From the sequence record NC_048196.1: a stretch of 64,000 bases of DNA; one strand, written 5' to 3'. The notes under the pieces are model-generated. The model saw nothing but the letters and a program-made list of their open reading frames with translations, was not told the DNA's origin and made no database searches. Of the stretch, positions 8,875 through 58,292 are shown piece by piece; position 1 is the first letter of the stretch; each line of letters opens with the position of its first letter. The stretch comes from Escherichia phage vB_EcoM_Schickermooser. A program made the translations under genes and the position numbers.

Positions 8875-9200
8875 TGAAAACAAGTAAAGATTTGATGGAG
8901 TTTTATAAAATTTATCTAGCATGGATTGATGTTGGTGCTCCTGATGGTAAACCTTTTCGGCGGGATTGTGGTTTGTGTGCCAACTTGTTCGATTATGTGC
9001 ACAGAGGTAATTACAACCCCATTATAACAACCTTGTCAGATGAAATGCACGCACAGTTTTACCATAAAGGGTTGAATCAAGGACTCCCTTTCAATGAGAA
9101 CTACGATGCATATGTCTTAGAGTCAGATGCAGATGCCTGTCACCTGAACGTGGACAGAATTAATTGGGTAAGAGATCGTATTGCAGAGGAGGATGAATAA
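8874..9200 (+). CDS. early paralog family A, member 4 (hypothetical)
   Basis: motifs FYKIYLAWI / GLCANL / RINWVRDRI. Confidence 0.6.
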   Translation: MKTSKDLMEFYKIYLAWIDVGAPDGKPFRRDCGLCANLFDYVHRGNYNPIITTLSDEMHAQFYHKGLNQGLPFNENYDAYVLESDADACHLNVDRINWVRDRIAEEDE

Positions 9201-9417
9201 TGTCGGATTATAACTGGTATGAACTTGAAGCTGTTTGTCAGTTTTATGACTCAATAGTTCTGCGTGATCCAATCTGTCAAGAATTGAGTCGCCGTGCAAT
9301 GCAGAGGAGGATGAATAATGTCGGATTATAACTGGTATGAACTTGAAGCTGTTTGTCAGTTTTATGACTCAATAGTTCTGCGTGATCCAATCTGTCAAGA
9401 ATTGAGTCGCCGTGCAA
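9182..9417 (+). repeat. perfect tandem duplication, 2 x 118 bp
   Basis: 9182-9299 is identical base-for-base to 9300-9417. Confidence 0.9.
9200..9331 (+). pseudogene. truncated duplicate of the N-terminus of the 9318 gene (43 codons)
   Basis: first repeat copy carries the same ATG and first 33 codons (MSDYNWYELEAVCQFYDSIVLRDPICQELSRRA), then shifts frame and stops. Confidence 0.4.
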
Positions 9418-9545
9418 GTGCATTGGCAATCCGTGTTAAAATAAACGGTTGGAACGCAGATTTGGAAAAAGAGTTGGAATTTCTCTTAGAAAACACGCGG
9501 GTCTTCCGCAAAGTGTTCCCTGAATGGTTTGAGATGGAAGAATGA
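9318..9545 (+). CDS. hypothetical protein
   Basis: ORF starting in the second repeat copy; GAGGAGG upstream. Confidence 0.5.
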   Translation: MSDYNWYELEAVCQFYDSIVLRDPICQELSRRASALAIRVKINGWNADLEKELEFLLENTRVFRKVFPEWFEMEE

Positions 9546-9763
9546 TCATGTGGATTGTGCGTCTTAAGTATGATGGCCCTAATCCTTGGGTGAGAACAGT
9601 TTGCGGATGTGATACTAAAGAGTCAGCAGATAAAGCTGGAAGAATGATAAGTGCCTTTTATAATAGTAAACCTCTTTGTTTAGAAATGTCTGGTGTGGTT
9701 TGTATGAGCATGTTCGAATACTACTCTTATGAGATCAAAGAACACCAAGGGGAATGGAAATAA
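9542..9763 (+). CDS. hypothetical protein
   Basis: ATGA overlap with previous gene. Confidence 0.45.
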   Translation: MIMWIVRLKYDGPNPWVRTVCGCDTKESADKAGRMISAFYNSKPLCLEMSGVVCMSMFEYYSYEIKEHQGEWK

Positions 9764-9777
9764 ATAGTTGACAGAAG

Positions 9778-9806
9778 GATCTGTCTTTGTCATAATCATC
9801 TCATCG
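9778..9806 (+). promoter_or_regulatory. sigma70-like promoter candidate (TTGACA-N17-CATAAT)
   Basis: TTGACA 9778-9783, CATAAT 9801-9806. Confidence 0.5.
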
Positions 9807-9825
9807 AAACAAAGAGGAGAAAATC

Positions 9826-10314
9826 ATGAAAAAATTTATTTGCACCCGTTCCACTAACAGTGATATCCTTGTAGGTAAGGTTATCAAAGGAGAACTCTTC
9901 CATGCAAACGGTAAGAAATATATTCTGCTGAAAGATTCTTTCAACGGGGAATATCCGCGCTGTACTTTCTTCAATTACAACACTCCGTTTGCTTTAGAAG
10001 GAGATGCTTGGGACTGGGCTGAACTTCATCCTTTCTGTGAAGATGGACAGACAGAAGAGCAGGAAGAATCTACGGGAAGTTTACGTGATAAACTGCGTAA
10101 TAAAGCACTGCAAGCAAATTCCCATTTTACTGAAATGGTAGACGCCGTTCTATTAGAGATTGAAGATTGTGCGGAACAAGGGAAGTTTGAAAAATACTTT
10201 GAACCTTCCAGTTTTGGTTTGTGCAATAACCCTTCTTCTTATGAACAGATAAGTGAACAGAAAAGAGGGGCAAATGTTGTAGCTACAATGCTACGTGCAA
10301 AGGTTTGGATGTAA
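9826..10314 (+). CDS. hypothetical protein
   Basis: AGAGGAG SD upstream. Confidence 0.6.
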   Translation: MKKFICTRSTNSDILVGKVIKGELFHANGKKYILLKDSFNGEYPRCTFFNYNTPFALEGDAWDWAELHPFCEDGQTEEQEESTGSLRDKLRNKALQANSHFTEMVDAVLLEIEDCAEQGKFEKYFEPSSFGLCNNPSSYEQISEQKRGANVVATMLRAKVWM

Positions 10315-10389
10315 CATTGGCAACCGCAGAGCACAGTATTTTTGGGATTATCAAACACATCATTATTAGTTGGAACTAAAGGAGAGAAT

Positions 10390-10689
10390 ATGCAAGTTGA
10401 AGACCTGATCCACATTCTGAATAAAGCTAAAGAGAAGGGTGCTATCAAAGACTGGAAACGTGAAACAAGTGAAGATTTATCTCATTGTTGCCGAGAGTTT
10501 TACATCGAAGGTATTGCTGACGATCATTATACTATCGAATGGTATATCAACTTAATGACCCTTAAGCACGGTTCATTTGAGATTTGGTTTGATGCTATTG
10601 ATGTAAATGGTTTTCATCCTGGATATAAGATTGCTATGCAGTTATCTTATCGCAGAGAAGTTGTAGCTCATTTGGGTTTACATAACTAA
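10390..10689 (+). CDS. hypothetical protein
   Basis: ATG 10390 after AAAGGAGAG. Confidence 0.5.
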   Translation: MQVEDLIHILNKAKEKGAIKDWKRETSEDLSHCCREFYIEGIADDHYTIEWYINLMTLKHGSFEIWFDAIDVNGFHPGYKIAMQLSYRREVVAHLGLHN

Positions 10690-10699
10690 GGAGAAAAGA

Positions 10700-11023
10700 A
10701 TGCAAGCAGTTGTTAACGAAGCTATTATGAACTTATCTTTCTTGTTAGCTGGTTTAGGAGGTGTTCTCATAGGTTTGGCTCTTATCTGGTGTATTCGTCG
10801 ATTAATCGGGTACCGACAAAAAGGTGTTTCATGTTTTGTATCTTACAATTTTACAACTGCTTACAGCAATGAGGTTGGATCTGGCAATGCTCAAGCATTT
10901 TTACCAACATATCCTCCTACGGTGGAAGATATTAGAAACTTGGAAGTAGAACTTATGGGACTAGGTGATAACTATACATCTCTAGTTATTCAAAATATTT
11001 TTCGACTAAAACAGGGGGCGTGA
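10700..11023 (+). CDS. membrane protein
   Basis: AAGGAG SD; hydrophobic segment LSFLLAGLGGVLIGLALIWCI. Confidence 0.55.
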   Translation: MQAVVNEAIMNLSFLLAGLGGVLIGLALIWCIRRLIGYRQKGVSCFVSYNFTTAYSNEVGSGNAQAFLPTYPPTVEDIRNLEVELMGLGDNYTSLVIQNIFRLKQGA

Positions 11024-11215
11024 ATGAAGGTACATTACCCTCATCCATTTGATCCTAAAAAAAAAGCCGTAATTCTTCGTCAGTGGCAACGGGTTTGTCG
11101 TACTAAATGTCCAATCAATAGCCCACACAATGTAGACAAGGACTATCTGGGACATTTGTTGAATACACTACATAGAAAAACAAGCGTAAACAACATGTCG
11201 AGGAATACTGCTTAA
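11024..11215 (+). CDS. hypothetical protein
   Basis: ORF abutting previous stop. Confidence 0.4.
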   Translation: MKVHYPHPFDPKKKAVILRQWQRVCRTKCPINSPHNVDKDYLGHLLNTLHRKTSVNNMSRNTA

Positions 11216-11244
11216 GAGTAGAATGGCTGTAAATAATAAATACC

Positions 11245-11273
11245 TTGACAAGTGTTTATTCGTTTTGTAAAGT
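11245..11273 (+). promoter_or_regulatory. sigma70-like promoter candidate (TTGACA-N17-TAAAGT)
   Basis: TTGACA 11245-11250, TAAAGT 11268-11273. Confidence 0.45.
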
Positions 11274-11302
11274 GAGAATACAGCAATGGTTTAGGAGCGG
11301 TT

Positions 11303-11955
11303 ATGAAAAAGTTTGTTGTTTACAGTCGTCTTTCTAACAGAAAAAAGGTGAGGCACACATGGTATGGAGAGCCAAGAGAATGATATCCGTTACTTCTTAG
11401 GTGTGATGCGGAAGTTATTGGTCAATTTTCTGAATACTATTCGGGTAAGGCGATTGGAAGCAACGTAAGGAACTGGTTAAAGGTTGAAATGTGTAAAGCT
11501 ACCGGAGCATTATTGGTAAAGTTGACCGCTTGGGTCGTAACAACGCCTCCGTAGCAACTCTTCTAGAAATGATTGATGTTAAGATAGCCATCATGCCAGA
11601 CGCAGATAAAATGGTTATACAGCTTCTGTCTGTTCTGGCTGAACAAGAAGTTAGAGGTATTGCTGATCGTATTAAAAAGGGTCTTGCTGTAGCAAAAAGC
11701 AAAGGTGTTTTATTAGGCAGTGCTAATCCTAAAACTGCCGCTGCACGTAGAAAAGGAAAAATGGAATACAACTCTGTTAAAGCAGACGCTTTTGCAGAGA
11801 CATTCCGTGAACGCTTGGAGATCCTTAGAGATTTAAATACACCTTACAAAACTATTGCTGAAAAATTCAATAGTAAGAAAATAGCAACAGCACGTGGTGG
11901 TAAATGGGATGCTAAAACTGTTTCTCGTTTGTGTGCCAGACTGAACATTAAATAG
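11303..11955 (+). pseudogene. decayed serine recombinase (resolvase/invertase-like)
   Basis: N-terminus MKKFVVYSRLS (Y.R.S catalytic-like) hits in-frame TGA at 11381-11383; downstream SGKA and, in another frame, KVDRLGRN; one missing base near 11524 would restore VKLDRLGR. Confidence 0.45.
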
Positions 11956-11963
11956 GAGAGGAT

Positions 11964-12371
11964 ATGAAACAAGAAAATGAATCTATAGATCACTTAATCA
12001 TGCTGTCAGCCCTTTTTGCCGGATGGGACGTATTTTTTGAAAATTTGTTCAATTCTGCTACAGATGGTTCCGATTTTATGCGCCAATTTAAACGACGAAC
12101 TGTTGAGGACTATGCTTTCTATTCAGGTCGGATTGAAAAAGGTTACGAAGATACAAATACAACACTCACCATTAAAGTTTTAGATGTGATGTTTAGTGTT
12201 ATAGATGCTATCGACGAAAGTCTTCCGATCCTAGATAATTGTAATACGAAAGCCTATGTTTACAAAATAGCCCGTGCTTATGTGTCTGCAAACAGTTGTC
12301 TTCTTTCCACCCAAATTGCGGTGAACAATCTTGCCAACTTGTCGATGAAGGAAACTTTTTATGACAATTGA
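11964..12371 (+). CDS. hypothetical protein
   Basis: AGGAGAGG SD upstream. Confidence 0.55.
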   Translation: MKQENESIDHLIMLSALFAGWDVFFENLFNSATDGSDFMRQFKRRTVEDYAFYSGRIEKGYEDTNTTLTIKVLDVMFSVIDAIDESLPILDNCNTKAYVYKIARAYVSANSCLLSTQIAVNNLANLSMKETFYDN

Positions 12372-12723
12372 TTTGAAGTGTAAGAGGATTCTTTTAGATT
12401 TCTATAATAATTGGTTAGAACACCTCCGTCTCTTTCCACGAGAAAGTGGTTACGCTGATGTTGGCTTATGCCGAGGTCTACGTATGTATATAAGTGATGA
12501 ATTTCGAGCCGATCATTCTTTATATTCTGTTTATGGTATGCAATTAGCCAGTTTTGAAAATGCTGGTTTAGATACAACTTTCCCGTTTAACACAGCAAAA
12601 TCTTTTGAGCAAGAGTGTAAGGAAAAACGTTGCATGTTTAATGAAAAACGTGTACAGTGGGTTAAGGAGCGAGTTAAACAACTGGAACAAGAGTTGGATT
12701 TCTTCTATGATGAGGCAGAATAA
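12361..12723 (+). CDS. early paralog family A, member 5 (hypothetical)
   Basis: motifs FYNNWL / GLCRGL / RVQWVKERV. Confidence 0.6.
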   Translation: MTIDLKCKRILLDFYNNWLEHLRLFPRESGYADVGLCRGLRMYISDEFRADHSLYSVYGMQLASFENAGLDTTFPFNTAKSFEQECKEKRCMFNEKRVQWVKERVKQLEQELDFFYDEAE

Positions 12724-12995
12724 TGGATAGACAAACCTTAAAAACAATGGCAGATGCCACTAATTCCCCGTACTTTGAAAAAGTAAGTAAATTGGTAGCT
12801 CAAGCCGCAGAGGAAGGATATTATAACATAAACATCCACAACCCAAGTCTTATACTAGAAATGCCAGGTGATAAGAAGATACAAGAGAGTATCTGTGAAG
12901 GTATTGTTAGTTACTGGCGCGAGCGTGGGTGTGGTGCAAACATGGCTTTAGACAGTGCAAACATTGTAAGATATATAAATATTTCTTGGGGGTGA
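12723..12995 (+). CDS. hypothetical protein
   Basis: TAATG overlap with previous gene. Confidence 0.5.
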   Translation: MDRQTLKTMADATNSPYFEKVSKLVAQAAEEGYYNINIHNPSLILEMPGDKKIQESICEGIVSYWRERGCGANMALDSANIVRYINISWG

Positions 12996-12999
12996 TTTT

Positions 13000-13611
13000 A
13001 TGATTCAATGCACTCATATCCAAATTACTTGGAGAGATGAACTTTACCATTTAGGACAATTTACTGTAGGGGAAACATACCCTGTCATTAAACATAATCC
13101 TAACATCGCAAACTTTGACAGGATGGTTCTTGTTGAGGACGATCTAGGTCAAACTTATTCTTTAGATCTAAAATATCCGTTTTCTTACGGCTACGATTGG
13201 ATCGTTACTTTTGAAGACGTGGAGGAAAATAAAACAATGAACGAAAAAAATTCTTGGTATTATCGTTGTGAACTGCCGCCAGTAGGTGAAAAGGTTATCT
13301 TTGTTCCTGATTTGGAAAGATATTCTTGGGACAGTTCTTATTCTGTTCCTAAAGAAGGCACCGAAGTTGAAGTTATTGCACATCGCACAACTTCGCATGG
13401 TAACGATGTAGCAGTTGTTTTCTGGGATGATGAAGGCGCTGCTTGTGCAGGGGGCTTTGTTGCAGGTAATTTTGAACCACTGCCAGATCCTTTGAAGGAG
13501 GCAATTTTAGGCGTAGCTTCTTTTGGACTCTCTTACACATCTGCACAAGAGATCGTAGAAGGTATTTTAAACGGTACCGTTCCAAACGAAATTTTTAAAC
13601 AGATTAAATAA
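13000..13611 (+). CDS. hypothetical protein
   Basis: 203-aa ORF. Confidence 0.55.
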   Translation: MIQCTHIQITWRDELYHLGQFTVGETYPVIKHNPNIANFDRMVLVEDDLGQTYSLDLKYPFSYGYDWIVTFEDVEENKTMNEKNSWYYRCELPPVGEKVIFVPDLERYSWDSSYSVPKEGTEVEVIAHRTTSHGNDVAVVFWDDEGAACAGGFVAGNFEPLPDPLKEAILGVASFGLSYTSAQEIVEGILNGTVPNEIFKQIK

Positions 13612-13618
13612 TAGTTGC

Positions 13619-13645
13619 ACCCCGTTCTGCGGGGTGTTATTGTAT
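13619..13645 (+). terminator. intrinsic terminator candidate
   Basis: 7-bp GC-rich stem CACCCCG/CGGGGTG followed by T-rich tract. Confidence 0.45.
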
Positions 13646-13661
13646 ACGTAAAGGAGCGCTA

Positions 13662-14000
13662 ATGTATTACACTGAAGACTACATATTATATAACTTTTTT
13701 AAAGGCTGGTTGGAATGGGCGGAAAAAGCTCCTGTTGGAGATTGTGTTTTTCCTTGGGACTCTCGTCAAGGTTTGTGTCGTTGTTTGGAAGATTGGCTTA
13801 TAACCACAAGCTACAACTCAGAAACTAAGAAATCTACATCAAACAGATTAAAAATGTTATTTGAAGAAGATGGTTTAGATCCAATTTATCCTTTCGGTGC
13901 TGAAAGCTTCCACAATGGTCTTTTTCTTGGTACTCAACATTATGACAAAGATCGCGTAGATTGGGTAAAAGAAAAGGTAGCACAGTATGAATGGGGTTAA
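13662..14000 (+). CDS. early paralog family A, member 6 (hypothetical)
   Basis: motifs FFKGWLEW / GLCRCL / RVDWVKEKV. Confidence 0.6.
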   Translation: MYYTEDYILYNFFKGWLEWAEKAPVGDCVFPWDSRQGLCRCLEDWLITTSYNSETKKSTSNRLKMLFEEDGLDPIYPFGAESFHNGLFLGTQHYDKDRVDWVKEKVAQYEWG

Positions 14001-14326
14001 GAATTATCACCATTGGTTAGAAAGTTATATTAAGAAATGTGAACTTGGTGTTCCAGGTTATACTTACGACACGGACGAGATTCTTGATGAAATGGAAGTT
14101 TGGTTTAAAGAGCCTCGTGAACTATTGGCAAATATTCTAATGGCTTAGGATGGTACGGCACAAAGGGGAGGTAGAAATGAGTAAGAAATTGTTTAATATT
14201 CGTGAGAACCGTGATGATCGTTCTCTGTAGTCAATGAGTTTAACGTTTCGGTTGGGACTTTTATTACTAAACGTCAAGCAGAACAAGTCAGAGATACTTT
14301 AAACAAGTAAATTTTTAAGGGGACTT

Positions 14327-14746
14327 ATGTTAGGTAAGATCAAAGCTTTTTTCAAACGTATTGTTGAAGGAAGTCCAACAGAAGGTGCATTAGGAAGATC
14401 TCTAACAGGAGAACCACTTGCCATAATTTCTATCAGTCGGCATGGTGGATATTCCATTCGACAAACACCTTTAGGTATAGAAGGTAGTATGCTTTCTTGG
14501 ACAATATCTCAAGTTGGTGATAACAGACTTGCAGCTATAGCGTTACTTCGTGGGGAGTATGACTATTGTTTATCAGCACCTTGTAAAAAGCACCTCATAG
14601 AGCACATTAGAGACAGAGTAGAAAGAGAAGGCGGATACTTCTTCGAAACTAAGAGAAACGAACAAGGAACTCTTGACTTCACTAAGGTTTACTGGGACAA
14701 TCATACTCGTCAAACTGTTGAACAACTTCTGGAGGAAAGATGTTAA
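14327..14746 (+). CDS. hypothetical protein
   Basis: AAGGGGA SD upstream. Confidence 0.55.
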   Translation: MLGKIKAFFKRIVEGSPTEGALGRSLTGEPLAIISISRHGGYSIRQTPLGIEGSMLSWTISQVGDNRLAAIALLRGEYDYCLSAPCKKHLIEHIRDRVEREGGYFFETKRNEQGTLDFTKVYWDNHTRQTVEQLLEERC

Positions 14747-14949
14747 AAGCTTTTGCTGTATACTCTACTGTAGGATTCTTTTATTGGATTATAGTTGTTG
14801 TTGGATGTTGGTTGGGTTCTTCTGTTGTGATGGGAGAATGGTTAACATACAATGTATTTGAATGGGATGTAGTTTGTAGATCATTACTTGTTATATGGAC
14901 TGCTATTGTTTGTTGGATAACTGTTAGTCTAACATTAGATCTATATTGA
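14740..14949 (+). CDS. small membrane protein
   Basis: GGAGGAAAG SD; two hydrophobic segments. Confidence 0.5.
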   Translation: MLKAFAVYSTVGFFYWIIVVVGCWLGSSVVMGEWLTYNVFEWDVVCRSLLVIWTAIVCWITVSLTLDLY

Positions 14950-15117
14950 TTAATAGATGGTAGATAGATGATCATAGTTTATCTACCTTCACTTACGTTT
15001 CATACCTCACTATCGTGAGTAACATGAAACATTATTATATAGAAATCTACTACTCGCTATCGCTCGTAAACATATGTTTAGGGTACCATATTTTTTTGAA
15101 AAAGTCAATGCTGACTC

Positions 15118-15207
15118 ACCTATCAATTATCCGTTTAAGATAAGTCTTACCTATCAATCTAACTCTTAACTAGTATTGCACCTATAGTAAGACTATTCCT
15201 ATAGTTA
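15118..15207 (+). promoter_or_regulatory. direct-repeat cluster in a 360-bp non-coding region
   Basis: ACCTATCAAT at 15118 and 15149; CCTATAGT at 15181 and 15198. Confidence 0.35.
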
Positions 15208-15242
15208 TTAACCCTCTTCTTCTGTAGAATGTAATTAGATCC

Positions 15243-15272
15243 TTGACAAACTCACAAAGCTTGTGTTACATT
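15243..15272 (+). promoter_or_regulatory. sigma70-like promoter candidate
   Basis: TTGACA 15243-15248, N17/18, TTACAT/TACATT. Confidence 0.35.
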
Positions 15273-15309
15273 GTGTCTCACAGGTGAATAATACCGAACA
15301 GGAGGAAGA

Positions 15310-15525
15310 ATGAGTTCCAATTTTCTATACAAAGCAAAAGATTCACGAGATGGAGAGAACCATTGGTGGTTGATCACAGGAGATGGTGTTATCATCCTAC
15401 CGTGGGACGGAGAGACAAAAGTTCAAATACTAGAGAAAGTAAAAGGTGTTAGTTTTAATGTTAGTCATGACATAACAACTTTCAAAGCTTTTGCTATGAA
15501 TCCTAGTCTTGTTGCTGAATGGTAA
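15310..15525 (+). CDS. hypothetical protein
   Basis: CAGGAGGAAG SD upstream. Confidence 0.5.
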   Translation: MSSNFLYKAKDSRDGENHWWLITGDGVIILPWDGETKVQILEKVKGVSFNVSHDITTFKAFAMNPSLVAEW

Positions 15526-15538
15526 TCCAGGAGAAAAT

Positions 15539-15757
15539 ATGACTAAAATGTATGCAGCCGTTGATAAGCTGGATGGGTCTGATTCTGTTTTTATTTTGAA
15601 TAAAATGGGTGTCTTAGTTTATGCCCGAACTTCTCAAAACATAGAACACCAAGTGGAAGCAGCACAAATTTTAGAGCAAATAACCCCTCCATACCTATAC
15701 TCAAATGTTGAGCGTTTTAACGATGCACTTGGTTTGACGTTAATAGCGGAATGGTAG
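15539..15757 (+). CDS. hypothetical protein
   Basis: ATG 15539 after CAGGAGAAAAT. Confidence 0.5.
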   Translation: MTKMYAAVDKLDGSDSVFILNKMGVLVYARTSQNIEHQVEAAQILEQITPPYLYSNVERFNDALGLTLIAEW

Positions 15758-15759
15758 TA

Positions 15760-15957
15760 ATGGCGAAAATGTTGGAAATTGATAATGTCGTAACAATCAC
15801 TACGTCCATACCTTGTCCTCCTATACCTTGCCCCTATTGTGGTGGTGCAGGATATGTTATGGCGGACGTAGGTCAAATTTACGAGTGTAACCCGTGCAAA
15901 ACCACAGGTTATATCCAAATAGAATCAGAGGAGAAACACTATGAGCCAAAACGCTAA
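15760..15957 (+). CDS. small Cys-rich protein
   Basis: CPYCGG ... CNPC motifs. Confidence 0.4.
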   Translation: MAKMLEIDNVVTITTSIPCPPIPCPYCGGAGYVMADVGQIYECNPCKTTGYIQIESEEKHYEPKR

Positions 15958-16390
15958 AGAAAAAGAAGTAATCACGGTAATCCGTCAGATGGAAGGTGCC
16001 GAAAACAATGCTTTTGTTACTAAGATTCTTCTTAATATTTTTGAAGATGTTATTTTAAACAACCCTGGTCATAAAGATTATCAGTATGATGTTATGATGG
16101 GTGCTTTGCTTGAGATTAACAAAAACACTTTTGCTGAATATGAGCAACACATGCTTTTACCAGAGGAAGATCAGGATTATTTGTTATCTGGTGCTTTAAG
16201 TGCACAAGAAAATTTCTACCACGTTCTTAATATGGCTTATGCAGATGAACTTGCTGTTTCCCTTGAAGAGCGTATTCAAATGGTTCGTGATGTGATGAAT
16301 GAACAAATCCAAGAAGTTGAAGACTTGGTAGCAGAACCTTTAGCAGAAATTCGTGCAGCTATTGAAAAACAAAAAGGAACTCAATCATGA
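15941..16390 (+). CDS. hypothetical protein
   Basis: GAGGAGAAA SD upstream. Confidence 0.55.
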   Translation: MSQNAKEKEVITVIRQMEGAENNAFVTKILLNIFEDVILNNPGHKDYQYDVMMGALLEINKNTFAEYEQHMLLPEEDQDYLLSGALSAQENFYHVLNMAYADELAVSLEERIQMVRDVMNEQIQEVEDLVAEPLAEIRAAIEKQKGTQS

Positions 16391-16554
16391 TGCAAGTAGG
16401 TGATGTGGTTTGCCTTAAAGGTGCAAACAAACAAATGACAGTAATAGAAAGTTATGGTGAATCTTGTAAAGTAACTTGGTTCGATGAAAACGGGGAATTG
16501 CAACACGCCATATTCGATCAAAAAGCTTTGAGGAAGGTTGAAGAAAAAGAATGA
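16387..16554 (+). CDS. hypothetical small protein (55 aa)
   Basis: ORF bridging two genes with overlapping start/stop. Confidence 0.4.
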   Translation: MMQVGDVVCLKGANKQMTVIESYGESCKVTWFDENGELQHAIFDQKALRKVEEKE

Positions 16555-57557: not shown

Positions 57558-57634
57558 CGGAATTTAGCTCAGTTTGGTAGAGCATACGCTTTGGGAGCGT
57601 AGGGTCGCAGGTTCGAATCCTGCAATTCCGACCA
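57558..57634 (+). tRNA. tRNA-Pro (anticodon TGG)
   Basis: acceptor CGGAATT/AATTCCG, loop TTTGGGA, T-arm GCAGG-TTCGAAT-CCTGC, CCA. Confidence 0.65.
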
Positions 57635-57640
57635 ATTTAA

Positions 57641-57714
57641 TGTTTCGTAGTTCAATGGTAGAACCCACGACTGATAATCGTGAGACACAAGTTCGATTCT
57701 TGTCGAAACAACCA
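57641..57714 (+). tRNA. tRNA-Ile (anticodon GAT)
   Basis: acceptor TGTTTCG/CGAAACA, anticodon stem CACGA/TCGTG, loop CTGATAA, CCA. Confidence 0.55.
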
Positions 57715-57717
57715 ATT

Positions 57718-57786
57718 TCCCGTTAGACTTACAGGATAAGAGTTCCACAGCTTATTGTGATGCTGGTTCGAATCCAGCACGGGATA
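57718..57786 (+). tRNA. tRNA-like element with non-canonical anticodon arm
   Basis: T-arm GCTGG-TTCGAAT-CCAGC and 6/7 acceptor pairing; best anticodon stem CACA/TGTG encloses a 6-nt loop; no CCA. Confidence 0.3.
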
Positions 57787-57792
57787 CATAAT

Positions 57793-57871
57793 AGCGGGAT
57801 AGAGGAGTCTGGTCGTCCTCGCCAGTTTCATATGCTGGAGATCATCGGTTCAAATCCGATTCCCGCCTCCA
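57793..57871 (+). tRNA. tRNA-Met (anticodon CAT), 1-72 mismatch (initiator-like?)
   Basis: acceptor AGCGGGA/TCCCGCC with A1-C72 mismatch, anticodon stem CCAGT/GCTGG, loop TTCATAT, T-loop TTCAAAT, CCA. Confidence 0.5.
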
Positions 57872-57984
57872 AATATCGCTTGCCAGCGGTATCTTTGAAG
57901 ACCTTGCCTGGTTCCTTCTAAGATGGAGGGGTGCGACTCCTTAACGCACAACATACTACTACTAAATACTTATCAGGAGATATC

Positions 57985-58254
57985 ATGTATACTTTAAAAG
58001 TAATTCGCAAGTTTCCTCAAGAAGAGGAAGTAAGAATTTATAACACTGTACCATTCGTAGTAAATGAAGAAGAATTCTTTTATTGCTTAGAAGATGAAGT
58101 AATTATTCAATATCATTGGGAAGGTTACGACAGACAAGATGGTGTTGTAGCTTCTGTGCTTGCTGGTGATAGAGTGTTATTCATTCACAAAACTGAATCA
58201 GCATATCTAATGAATGATAAAGGACAAACTGTTAAAGTAATTAACAGACCATAA
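57985..58254 (+). CDS. hypothetical protein
   Basis: ATG 57985 after AGGAGA; listed upstream extension runs into the tRNA region. Confidence 0.5.
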   Translation: MYTLKVIRKFPQEEEVRIYNTVPFVVNEEEFFYCLEDEVIIQYHWEGYDRQDGVVASVLAGDRVLFIHKTESAYLMNDKGQTVKVINRP

Positions 58255-58264
58255 AGAATTTTAT

Positions 58265-58292
58265 AAAAGCCTCCTTATTGGAGGCTTTTTGC
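58265..58292 (+). terminator. intrinsic terminator
   Basis: AAAGCCTCC-TTATT-GGAGGCTTT hairpin followed by T-run. Confidence 0.55.

Follow-up and report, generated by a model that had tools for sequence, protein, structure and literature searches.

The window encodes an interrupted orthologue of the Phapecoctavirus small serine recombinase

Positions 11303 to 11955 of the window (the whole 64-kb stretch of DNA analyzed here) hold a small serine recombinase gene whose reading frame is interrupted as written. Upstream of it on the plus strand lie a sigma-70-like promoter at 11245..11273 (TTGACA, a 17-nt spacer, and TAAAGT; 10 of 12 consensus matches), which is identical in related phages, and the Shine-Dalgarno sequence AGGAG at 11293..11297, which is kept and adjoins a private T>C change at 11298. 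The first ORF, 26 codons at 11303..11383 on the same strand, reads MKKFVVYSRLSNRKKVRHTWYGEPRE; its opening residues, MKKFVVYSRLS (11303-11335), carry the Y-x-R-x-S motif, and the ORF runs off-frame past 11338 to an in-frame TGA. Further on, the frame of this ORF contains ...DAEVIGQFSEYYSGKAIGSN... (including SEYYSGKA) and ...CKATGALLVKL.... The D-R-L-x-R motif is also present in the DNA, as part of KVDRLGRN from 11519, but in a different frame, where it heads a mechanically called ORF of 141 codons (11530-11955, from TTG 11530). The 3' two-thirds of the gene (11519..11955, plus strand) is undamaged from KVDRLGRN through the E-helix and the putative DNA-binding region at the C terminus to the stop codon; these 437 nt hold no private difference, and every difference in them is also found in relatives. 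An earlier note on this DNA, made from the letters alone, had described the 26-codon ORF with its TGA, the later SGKA and ALLVKL in the same frame, the displacement of KVDRLGRN to another frame, and the intact 141 C-terminal codons, and all of these descriptions were borne out.

The window covers the left part of the genome of a Phapecoctavirus (an E. coli myovirus of the phAPEC8/ESCO13 type, in the Stephanstirmvirinae), and phAPEC8-like phages match it with 97 to 99.7% identity. Positions 25001-50000 align base for base with phage vB_EcoM-Ro121lw (99.7% identity, net indel of zero), and over 14324-49710 there are no indels at all relative to that phage. The early-gene region (1-25000) is more variable, at 96 to 98% identity to many members of the genus, and relatives are colinear with the window across the recombinase region. 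In the tRNA-gene region, 57558-58268 is unaligned to Ro121lw and forms a gap between HSPs, presumably natural variation in tRNA content.

In Phapecoctavirus, the gene at 11303-11955 has as its orthologue a conserved small serine recombinase gene that is expressed early (phAPEC8_0049; 672 nt, 223 amino acids), and the occurrence of this gene family in these phages is already annotated and known. Relatives carry an intact 672-nt coding sequence at the same position, annotated as serine recombinase, resolvase, DNA invertase, or putative site-specific recombinase. These orthologues (AFU62624.1 for phAPEC8_0049; CAA7332583.1 of UP17, "serine recombinase"; AXA27850.1 of Ro121lw and AOQ27175.1 of ESCO13, both "resolvase") have the same position, promoter, and neighbors as the window copy and are about 100% identical to it in nucleotide sequence outside the deletions; whereas all of them are 672 nt and 223 amino acids long, the window copy lacks 19 nt at eight places and has no continuous ORF. 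Several GenBank records label either the intact orthologue or the upstream 70-amino-acid DUF7202 gene "methionine ABC transporter ATP-binding protein" (for example, L005 11799-12470 [LR597654.1, VUF53999.1], OR062524, OR352955, and MW175890), evidently a propagated annotation error.

Profile searches bear out the resolvase homology that the earlier note had read from the sequence. A 146-residue C-terminal stretch from 11515, comprising the 141-codon ORF and five upstream codons, matches Resolvase (PF00239) with 27.9 bits (E value, 2.9e-6; Pfam cutoff, 23.3 bits). The frame-corrected translation of the window reaches 64.1 bits (E value, 1.9e-17), close to the 66 bits (E value, 5e-18) of the intact orthologue. 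The intact orthologue also matches PHROG 125, "DNA invertase" (E value, 2.6e-32), as does the 3' portion of the window copy (11519-11955; E value, 2.5e-14). Gamma-delta and Tn3 resolvases are 29% identical to the intact orthologue and have the K-(V/L)-D-R-L-G-R motif and the E-helix in common with it; no NCBIfam equivalog matched the intact orthologue.

Small serine recombinases act through a phosphoseryl intermediate and subunit rotation, and the intact Phapecoctavirus protein would do the same. It resembles Tn3/gamma-delta resolvase and Hin/Gin (PF00239) in its Y-x-R-x-S nucleophile motif, D-R-L-G-R, and E-helix, and it has all the catalytic-domain features expected of this class. It is predicted to consist of a resolvase-type catalytic domain followed by a short, putative DNA-binding region at the C terminus. 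This C-terminal region appears to differ from the helix-turn-helix of classical resolvases; its only hit is a subthreshold match to PF07508, the "Recombinase" domain of large serine recombinases (18.1 to 18.9 bits against a cutoff of 21.1).

No crossover sites, invertible segment, or host copies are found

The earlier note had suggested that the gene might be a relic of an inversion or integration system, and the surroundings of the gene do not support such a system. Sites resembling the res, hix, or gix of resolvase and invertase systems were not identified, and between 8500 and 15000 we found neither an invertible segment nor crossover-site repeats, the inverted repeats there being short, imperfect, and by our estimate at chance level. 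One 23-nt inverted pair (11173-11195 and 11314-11336) was considered as a crossover site and rejected; only a 10-nt core is perfect, a match that we estimate chance alone would produce in 6.5 kb, and private deletions alter one of the two arms. A DNA invertase system of the Hin/Gin/Cin type was likewise not supported: no invertible segment with flanking crossover sites was found, and the relatives are colinear across the region.

Phages of this group are strictly lytic. We found no matches to the region, as prophage copies, among 5,426 complete E. coli genomes or PLSDB plasmids, and the conserved gene pattern was absent from GTDB genome contigs; with no copies in host genomes or plasmids, a temperate-phage integrase was set aside. 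The literature on the role of the gene holds speculative remarks and no experiments; concatemer resolution has been raised as speculation only (PMC10282059).

Eight small deletions break the recombinase gene as written

To map the lesions, we aligned the gene with its counterparts in three GenBank relatives and two metagenome contigs. The window copy carries eight private deletions, totaling 19 nt, when set against all intact orthologues; they form a cluster at 11338..11519 (plus strand), across which the coding segments alternate among three frames. The events are 1 nt at 11338 (AAA>AA), 1 nt at 11359 (with an adjoining substitution), two deletions of 5 and 2 nt at 11401-11404, 1 nt at 11451 (GGG>GG), 2 nt at 11483, 3 nt at 11510, and 4 nt at 11519. 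The single-base loss that the earlier note had placed near 11524 is in fact the last of these, the 4-nt loss at 11519. All eight fall within 182 of the 653 nt, with no independent substitution alongside, and together they produce five frame changes. Codons are lost as well; compared with the orthologues, D-S-V-P is reduced, for example, and the residues T and A are gone.

With a stop after 26 codons and five frame changes, there is no continuous ORF that joins the nucleophile, the catalytic arginines, the E-helix, and the DNA-binding domain. The Ser/Arg nucleophile motif lies on the 26-codon ORF, whereas a different frame holds D-R-L-G-R, the E-helix, and the putative DNA-binding region. The nucleophile is thus out of frame with the remainder of the active site, and the gene as written cannot give an active enzyme.

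The deletions are private to this record

The intact gene is present in about 63 GenBank phages and about 20 contigs derived from metagenomes or SRA, none of which shares any of the deletions. All 61 of the 61 full-length GenBank matches measure 1726 to 1727 nt where the window has 1701 nt; GenBank matches likewise measure 270 nt where the window has 251 nt and about 2063 nt where it has 2051 nt. Contigs from metagenomes, ENA, JGI, and Logan, found via the neighboring proteins, all have a called 223-amino-acid Resolvase gene and full-length neighbors. We also searched 27 fetched loci for 18 21-mers spanning the deletion junctions and found no occurrence, while control 21-mers from the same region were present in 17 to 22 of the 27. 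The exact pattern of one junction was not found in IMG/VR, JGI metagenomes, or GTDB genomes; a conserved 3' pattern, used as the control for this search, matched two metagenome contigs, both with the intact allele. Exact-protein look-ups of the truncated or altered products (141, 128, 135, 120, and 162 amino acids) returned no record, and those with the intact neighbors returned close relatives, none with a shared deletion.

The deletions extend over a wider patch with few substitutions

Private deletions reach well beyond the recombinase gene. The patch at 10302..14323 contains 19 gap openings (39 nt) and no insertions, and five genes in it appear broken, the recombinase and four small early genes. 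The latter lie at 9826-10314 (frameshift at about codon 159 of 184), 11024-11215 (frameshift), 13987-14148 (a private nonsense substitution at 14147), and 14177-14310 (frameshift). Outside the recombinase, frame-neutral changes consist of a 1- plus 2-nt pair 10 nt apart (12343/12353), a 3-nt loss at 12523, and a 6-nt loss at 14167, and single bases are lost from intergenic Shine-Dalgarno G-runs at 13657 and 14323. Truly private substitutions number four (9963, 11062, 11298, and 14147); a deletion lies no more than about 90 nt from three of these sites, and the stretch 14400-16400 has no such substitution. The private C>A at 11062 lengthens an A-run to nine (CCTAAAAAAAAAGCC) in the 63-codon ORF at 11024-11215, 86 nt upstream of a deletion cluster.

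These counts do not fit natural divergence. Over 9757-14500, the closest relatives of the window (Logan contigs L022 and L019) differ from it by only 7 to 9 substitutions and by 19 gap openings (39 nt), all of them deletions. The same segment is 4783 to 4785 nt long in all of eleven relatives, and the 55 pairwise comparisons among these give 4948 mismatches against 34 gap openings, or about 0.7 gaps per 100 substitutions as the natural variation of the segment. Seven substitutions would thus be accompanied by about 0.05 gaps, and 19 are observed; the deletion load, which comes without substitutions, exceeds the natural ratio of indels to substitutions in the segment by a factor of hundreds. 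It is therefore not the product of slow decay. Elsewhere in the early region, 2182-2381 has dense insertions and deletions in both directions relative to Ro121lw, ev052, and ESCO13, which are absent relative to ESCO37; such a pattern resembles natural polymorphism or mosaicism, in contrast to the deletion-only patch.

The arrangement of the deletions is also distinctive. Clusters densify and then end abruptly, at about 10302, 11519, 12523, 13657, and 14323, with perfect identity beyond. Single-base drops hit 2-nt runs and leave the A6 run at 11341-11346 untouched, and no common motif (methylation or restriction sites) is evident at the deletion sites. Just upstream, the window has a perfect 118-nt tandem duplication at 9182-9417 (9182-9299 equals 9300-9417), which places a truncated 43-amino-acid copy (9200-9331) ahead of the full 75-amino-acid gene (9318-9545). 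None of Ro121lw, ev052, ESCO37, ESCO13, and the Logan contigs has the duplication, and the window alone has its junction 21-mer; the repeat may be real, or it may be an artifact of joining the assembly.

Origin of the lesions

The balance of the evidence leans toward a local sequence-quality artifact of this record as the source of the recombinase lesions, an attribution of technical cause that we draw from the pattern of the changes. Sequencing error, which the earlier note had named as what would refute its reading, has thus become the leading explanation, if by a modest measure of confidence. Several features favor it. Only deletions are seen; the recombinase gene has all eight of its events within 182 nt and matches relatives exactly over its remaining 437 nt; single bases are dropped from 2-nt runs with the A6 run spared, and the clusters densify and then stop. 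The four private substitutions sit in the same patch, and the perfect 118-nt duplication, absent from relatives, lies just upstream. Under this explanation, about 4 to 5 kb (roughly 9.3 to 14.4 kb) would be a lower-quality stretch inside an otherwise clean assembly, possibly a single-pass or low-coverage segment used for gap closure. The dense-then-abrupt clusters may be the tails of single-pass reads, and the duplication at 9182-9417 may mark a mis-merged join just upstream of the patch.

Some observations count against an artifact. The remainder of the window looks like a high-quality assembly, so that a stretch of bad sequence would have to be explained by some special history. Sanger or nanopore data of poor quality usually carry some substitutions or ambiguous bases; here private substitutions are few, and there are no ambiguous bases. 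Outside the recombinase, moreover, the frame-neutral and noncoding events hint weakly at selection (about P = 0.05 by our own estimate), such an excess being what is expected of real mutations filtered by selection.

The main rival, which we regard as plausible but distinctly the less probable, is that the lesions are genuine and reflect a recent, localized burst of small deletions in a dispensable block of early genes. The burst could stem from a damaged segment that was repaired or replicated with errors, from passage or mutagenesis in the laboratory, or from a segment that is synthetic or PCR-derived, and it would have inactivated the recombinase and its four small neighbors with lytic growth unharmed. 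The cleanness of the assembly elsewhere speaks for such a burst, as do the modest excess of in-frame, compensating, or intergenic deletions outside the recombinase and the fact that the affected genes are all small accessory early genes. The tiny substitution divergence from the nearest relatives would make the events very recent, consistent with a single episode. However, no known natural process yields about 19 deletions, no insertions, and about five substitutions in 4 kb, and natural variation in the segment amounts to only about 0.7 gaps per 100 substitutions. The deletion sites share no sequence motif, and none of these alleles occurs in any independent assembly. In a more specific form, to which we give only a small chance, a deletion-only burst, spanning some 4 kb in the genome of a lytic phage, would have knocked out an otherwise universally conserved recombinase, which would hence be dispensable, and could be the scar of error-prone repair after the early-gene region was damaged by host defense or a nuclease.

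The earlier note had called the gene decayed, and perhaps a relic. Its family assignment and the disruption as written stand, but evolutionary decay does not, given lesions that are private and come with no substitution load. That the gene once served an inversion, resolution, or integration system now lost, and is today an old pseudogene undergoing neutral decay in this lineage, is in our view very improbable. Multiple inactivating lesions in one gene are what such a history would leave, yet the gene is intact and almost invariant in all of the approximately 80 related sequences examined, and its lesions are common to none of them. Its 3' 437 nt have no private change, its eight indels are matched by zero independent substitutions, and unrelated neighboring genes bear lesions of the same type. 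In an old pseudogene, lesions would be spread along the gene with proportional substitutions, and relatives would share some of them; we found neither relatives with a subset of the deletions nor a substitution load in the gene proportional to its indels, and a relic is therefore not supported.

We give equally little credence to the idea that the 141-codon C-terminal ORF, with the E-helix and DNA-binding region, is made alone as a DNA-binding or dominant-negative protein. This ORF (11530-11955) is indeed uninterrupted and identical to relatives, but no Shine-Dalgarno sequence precedes TTG 11530 or the in-frame ATGs at 11569, 11593, and 11611, and the allele occurs in no other sequence, so that nothing suggests selection for it. 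Weakest of all, and in our estimate next to impossible, is programmed recoding, whether by a ribosomal frameshift, read-through of the stop, or slippage during transcription; recoding is a possibility that the earlier note had also raised. The A6 run (11341-11346) that follows the first deletion could in principle permit some slippage, but five separate frame changes and a TGA would have to be overcome, and the window copy has physically lost 19 nt, whole codons among them. The frame breaks fall just where bases are missing by comparison with the orthologues, whose coding sequence runs on in a single frame and whose flanking nucleotides are identical, and this excludes recoding.

Implications for the record and for Phapecoctavirus

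As an artifact of the record, the most likely case, the damage to a known gene in a known phage group has little biological weight, and its value lies in quality control. The record contains a stretch of about 4 kb (10302-14323) with five apparently broken genes, together with a suspicious 118-nt duplication, and pseudogenes or truncated proteins are what automated annotation will report for that stretch. Should the lesions be real, they would indicate an unusual, deletion-biased mutational event, and the conserved Phapecoctavirus recombinase and four early genes would be dispensable for growth.
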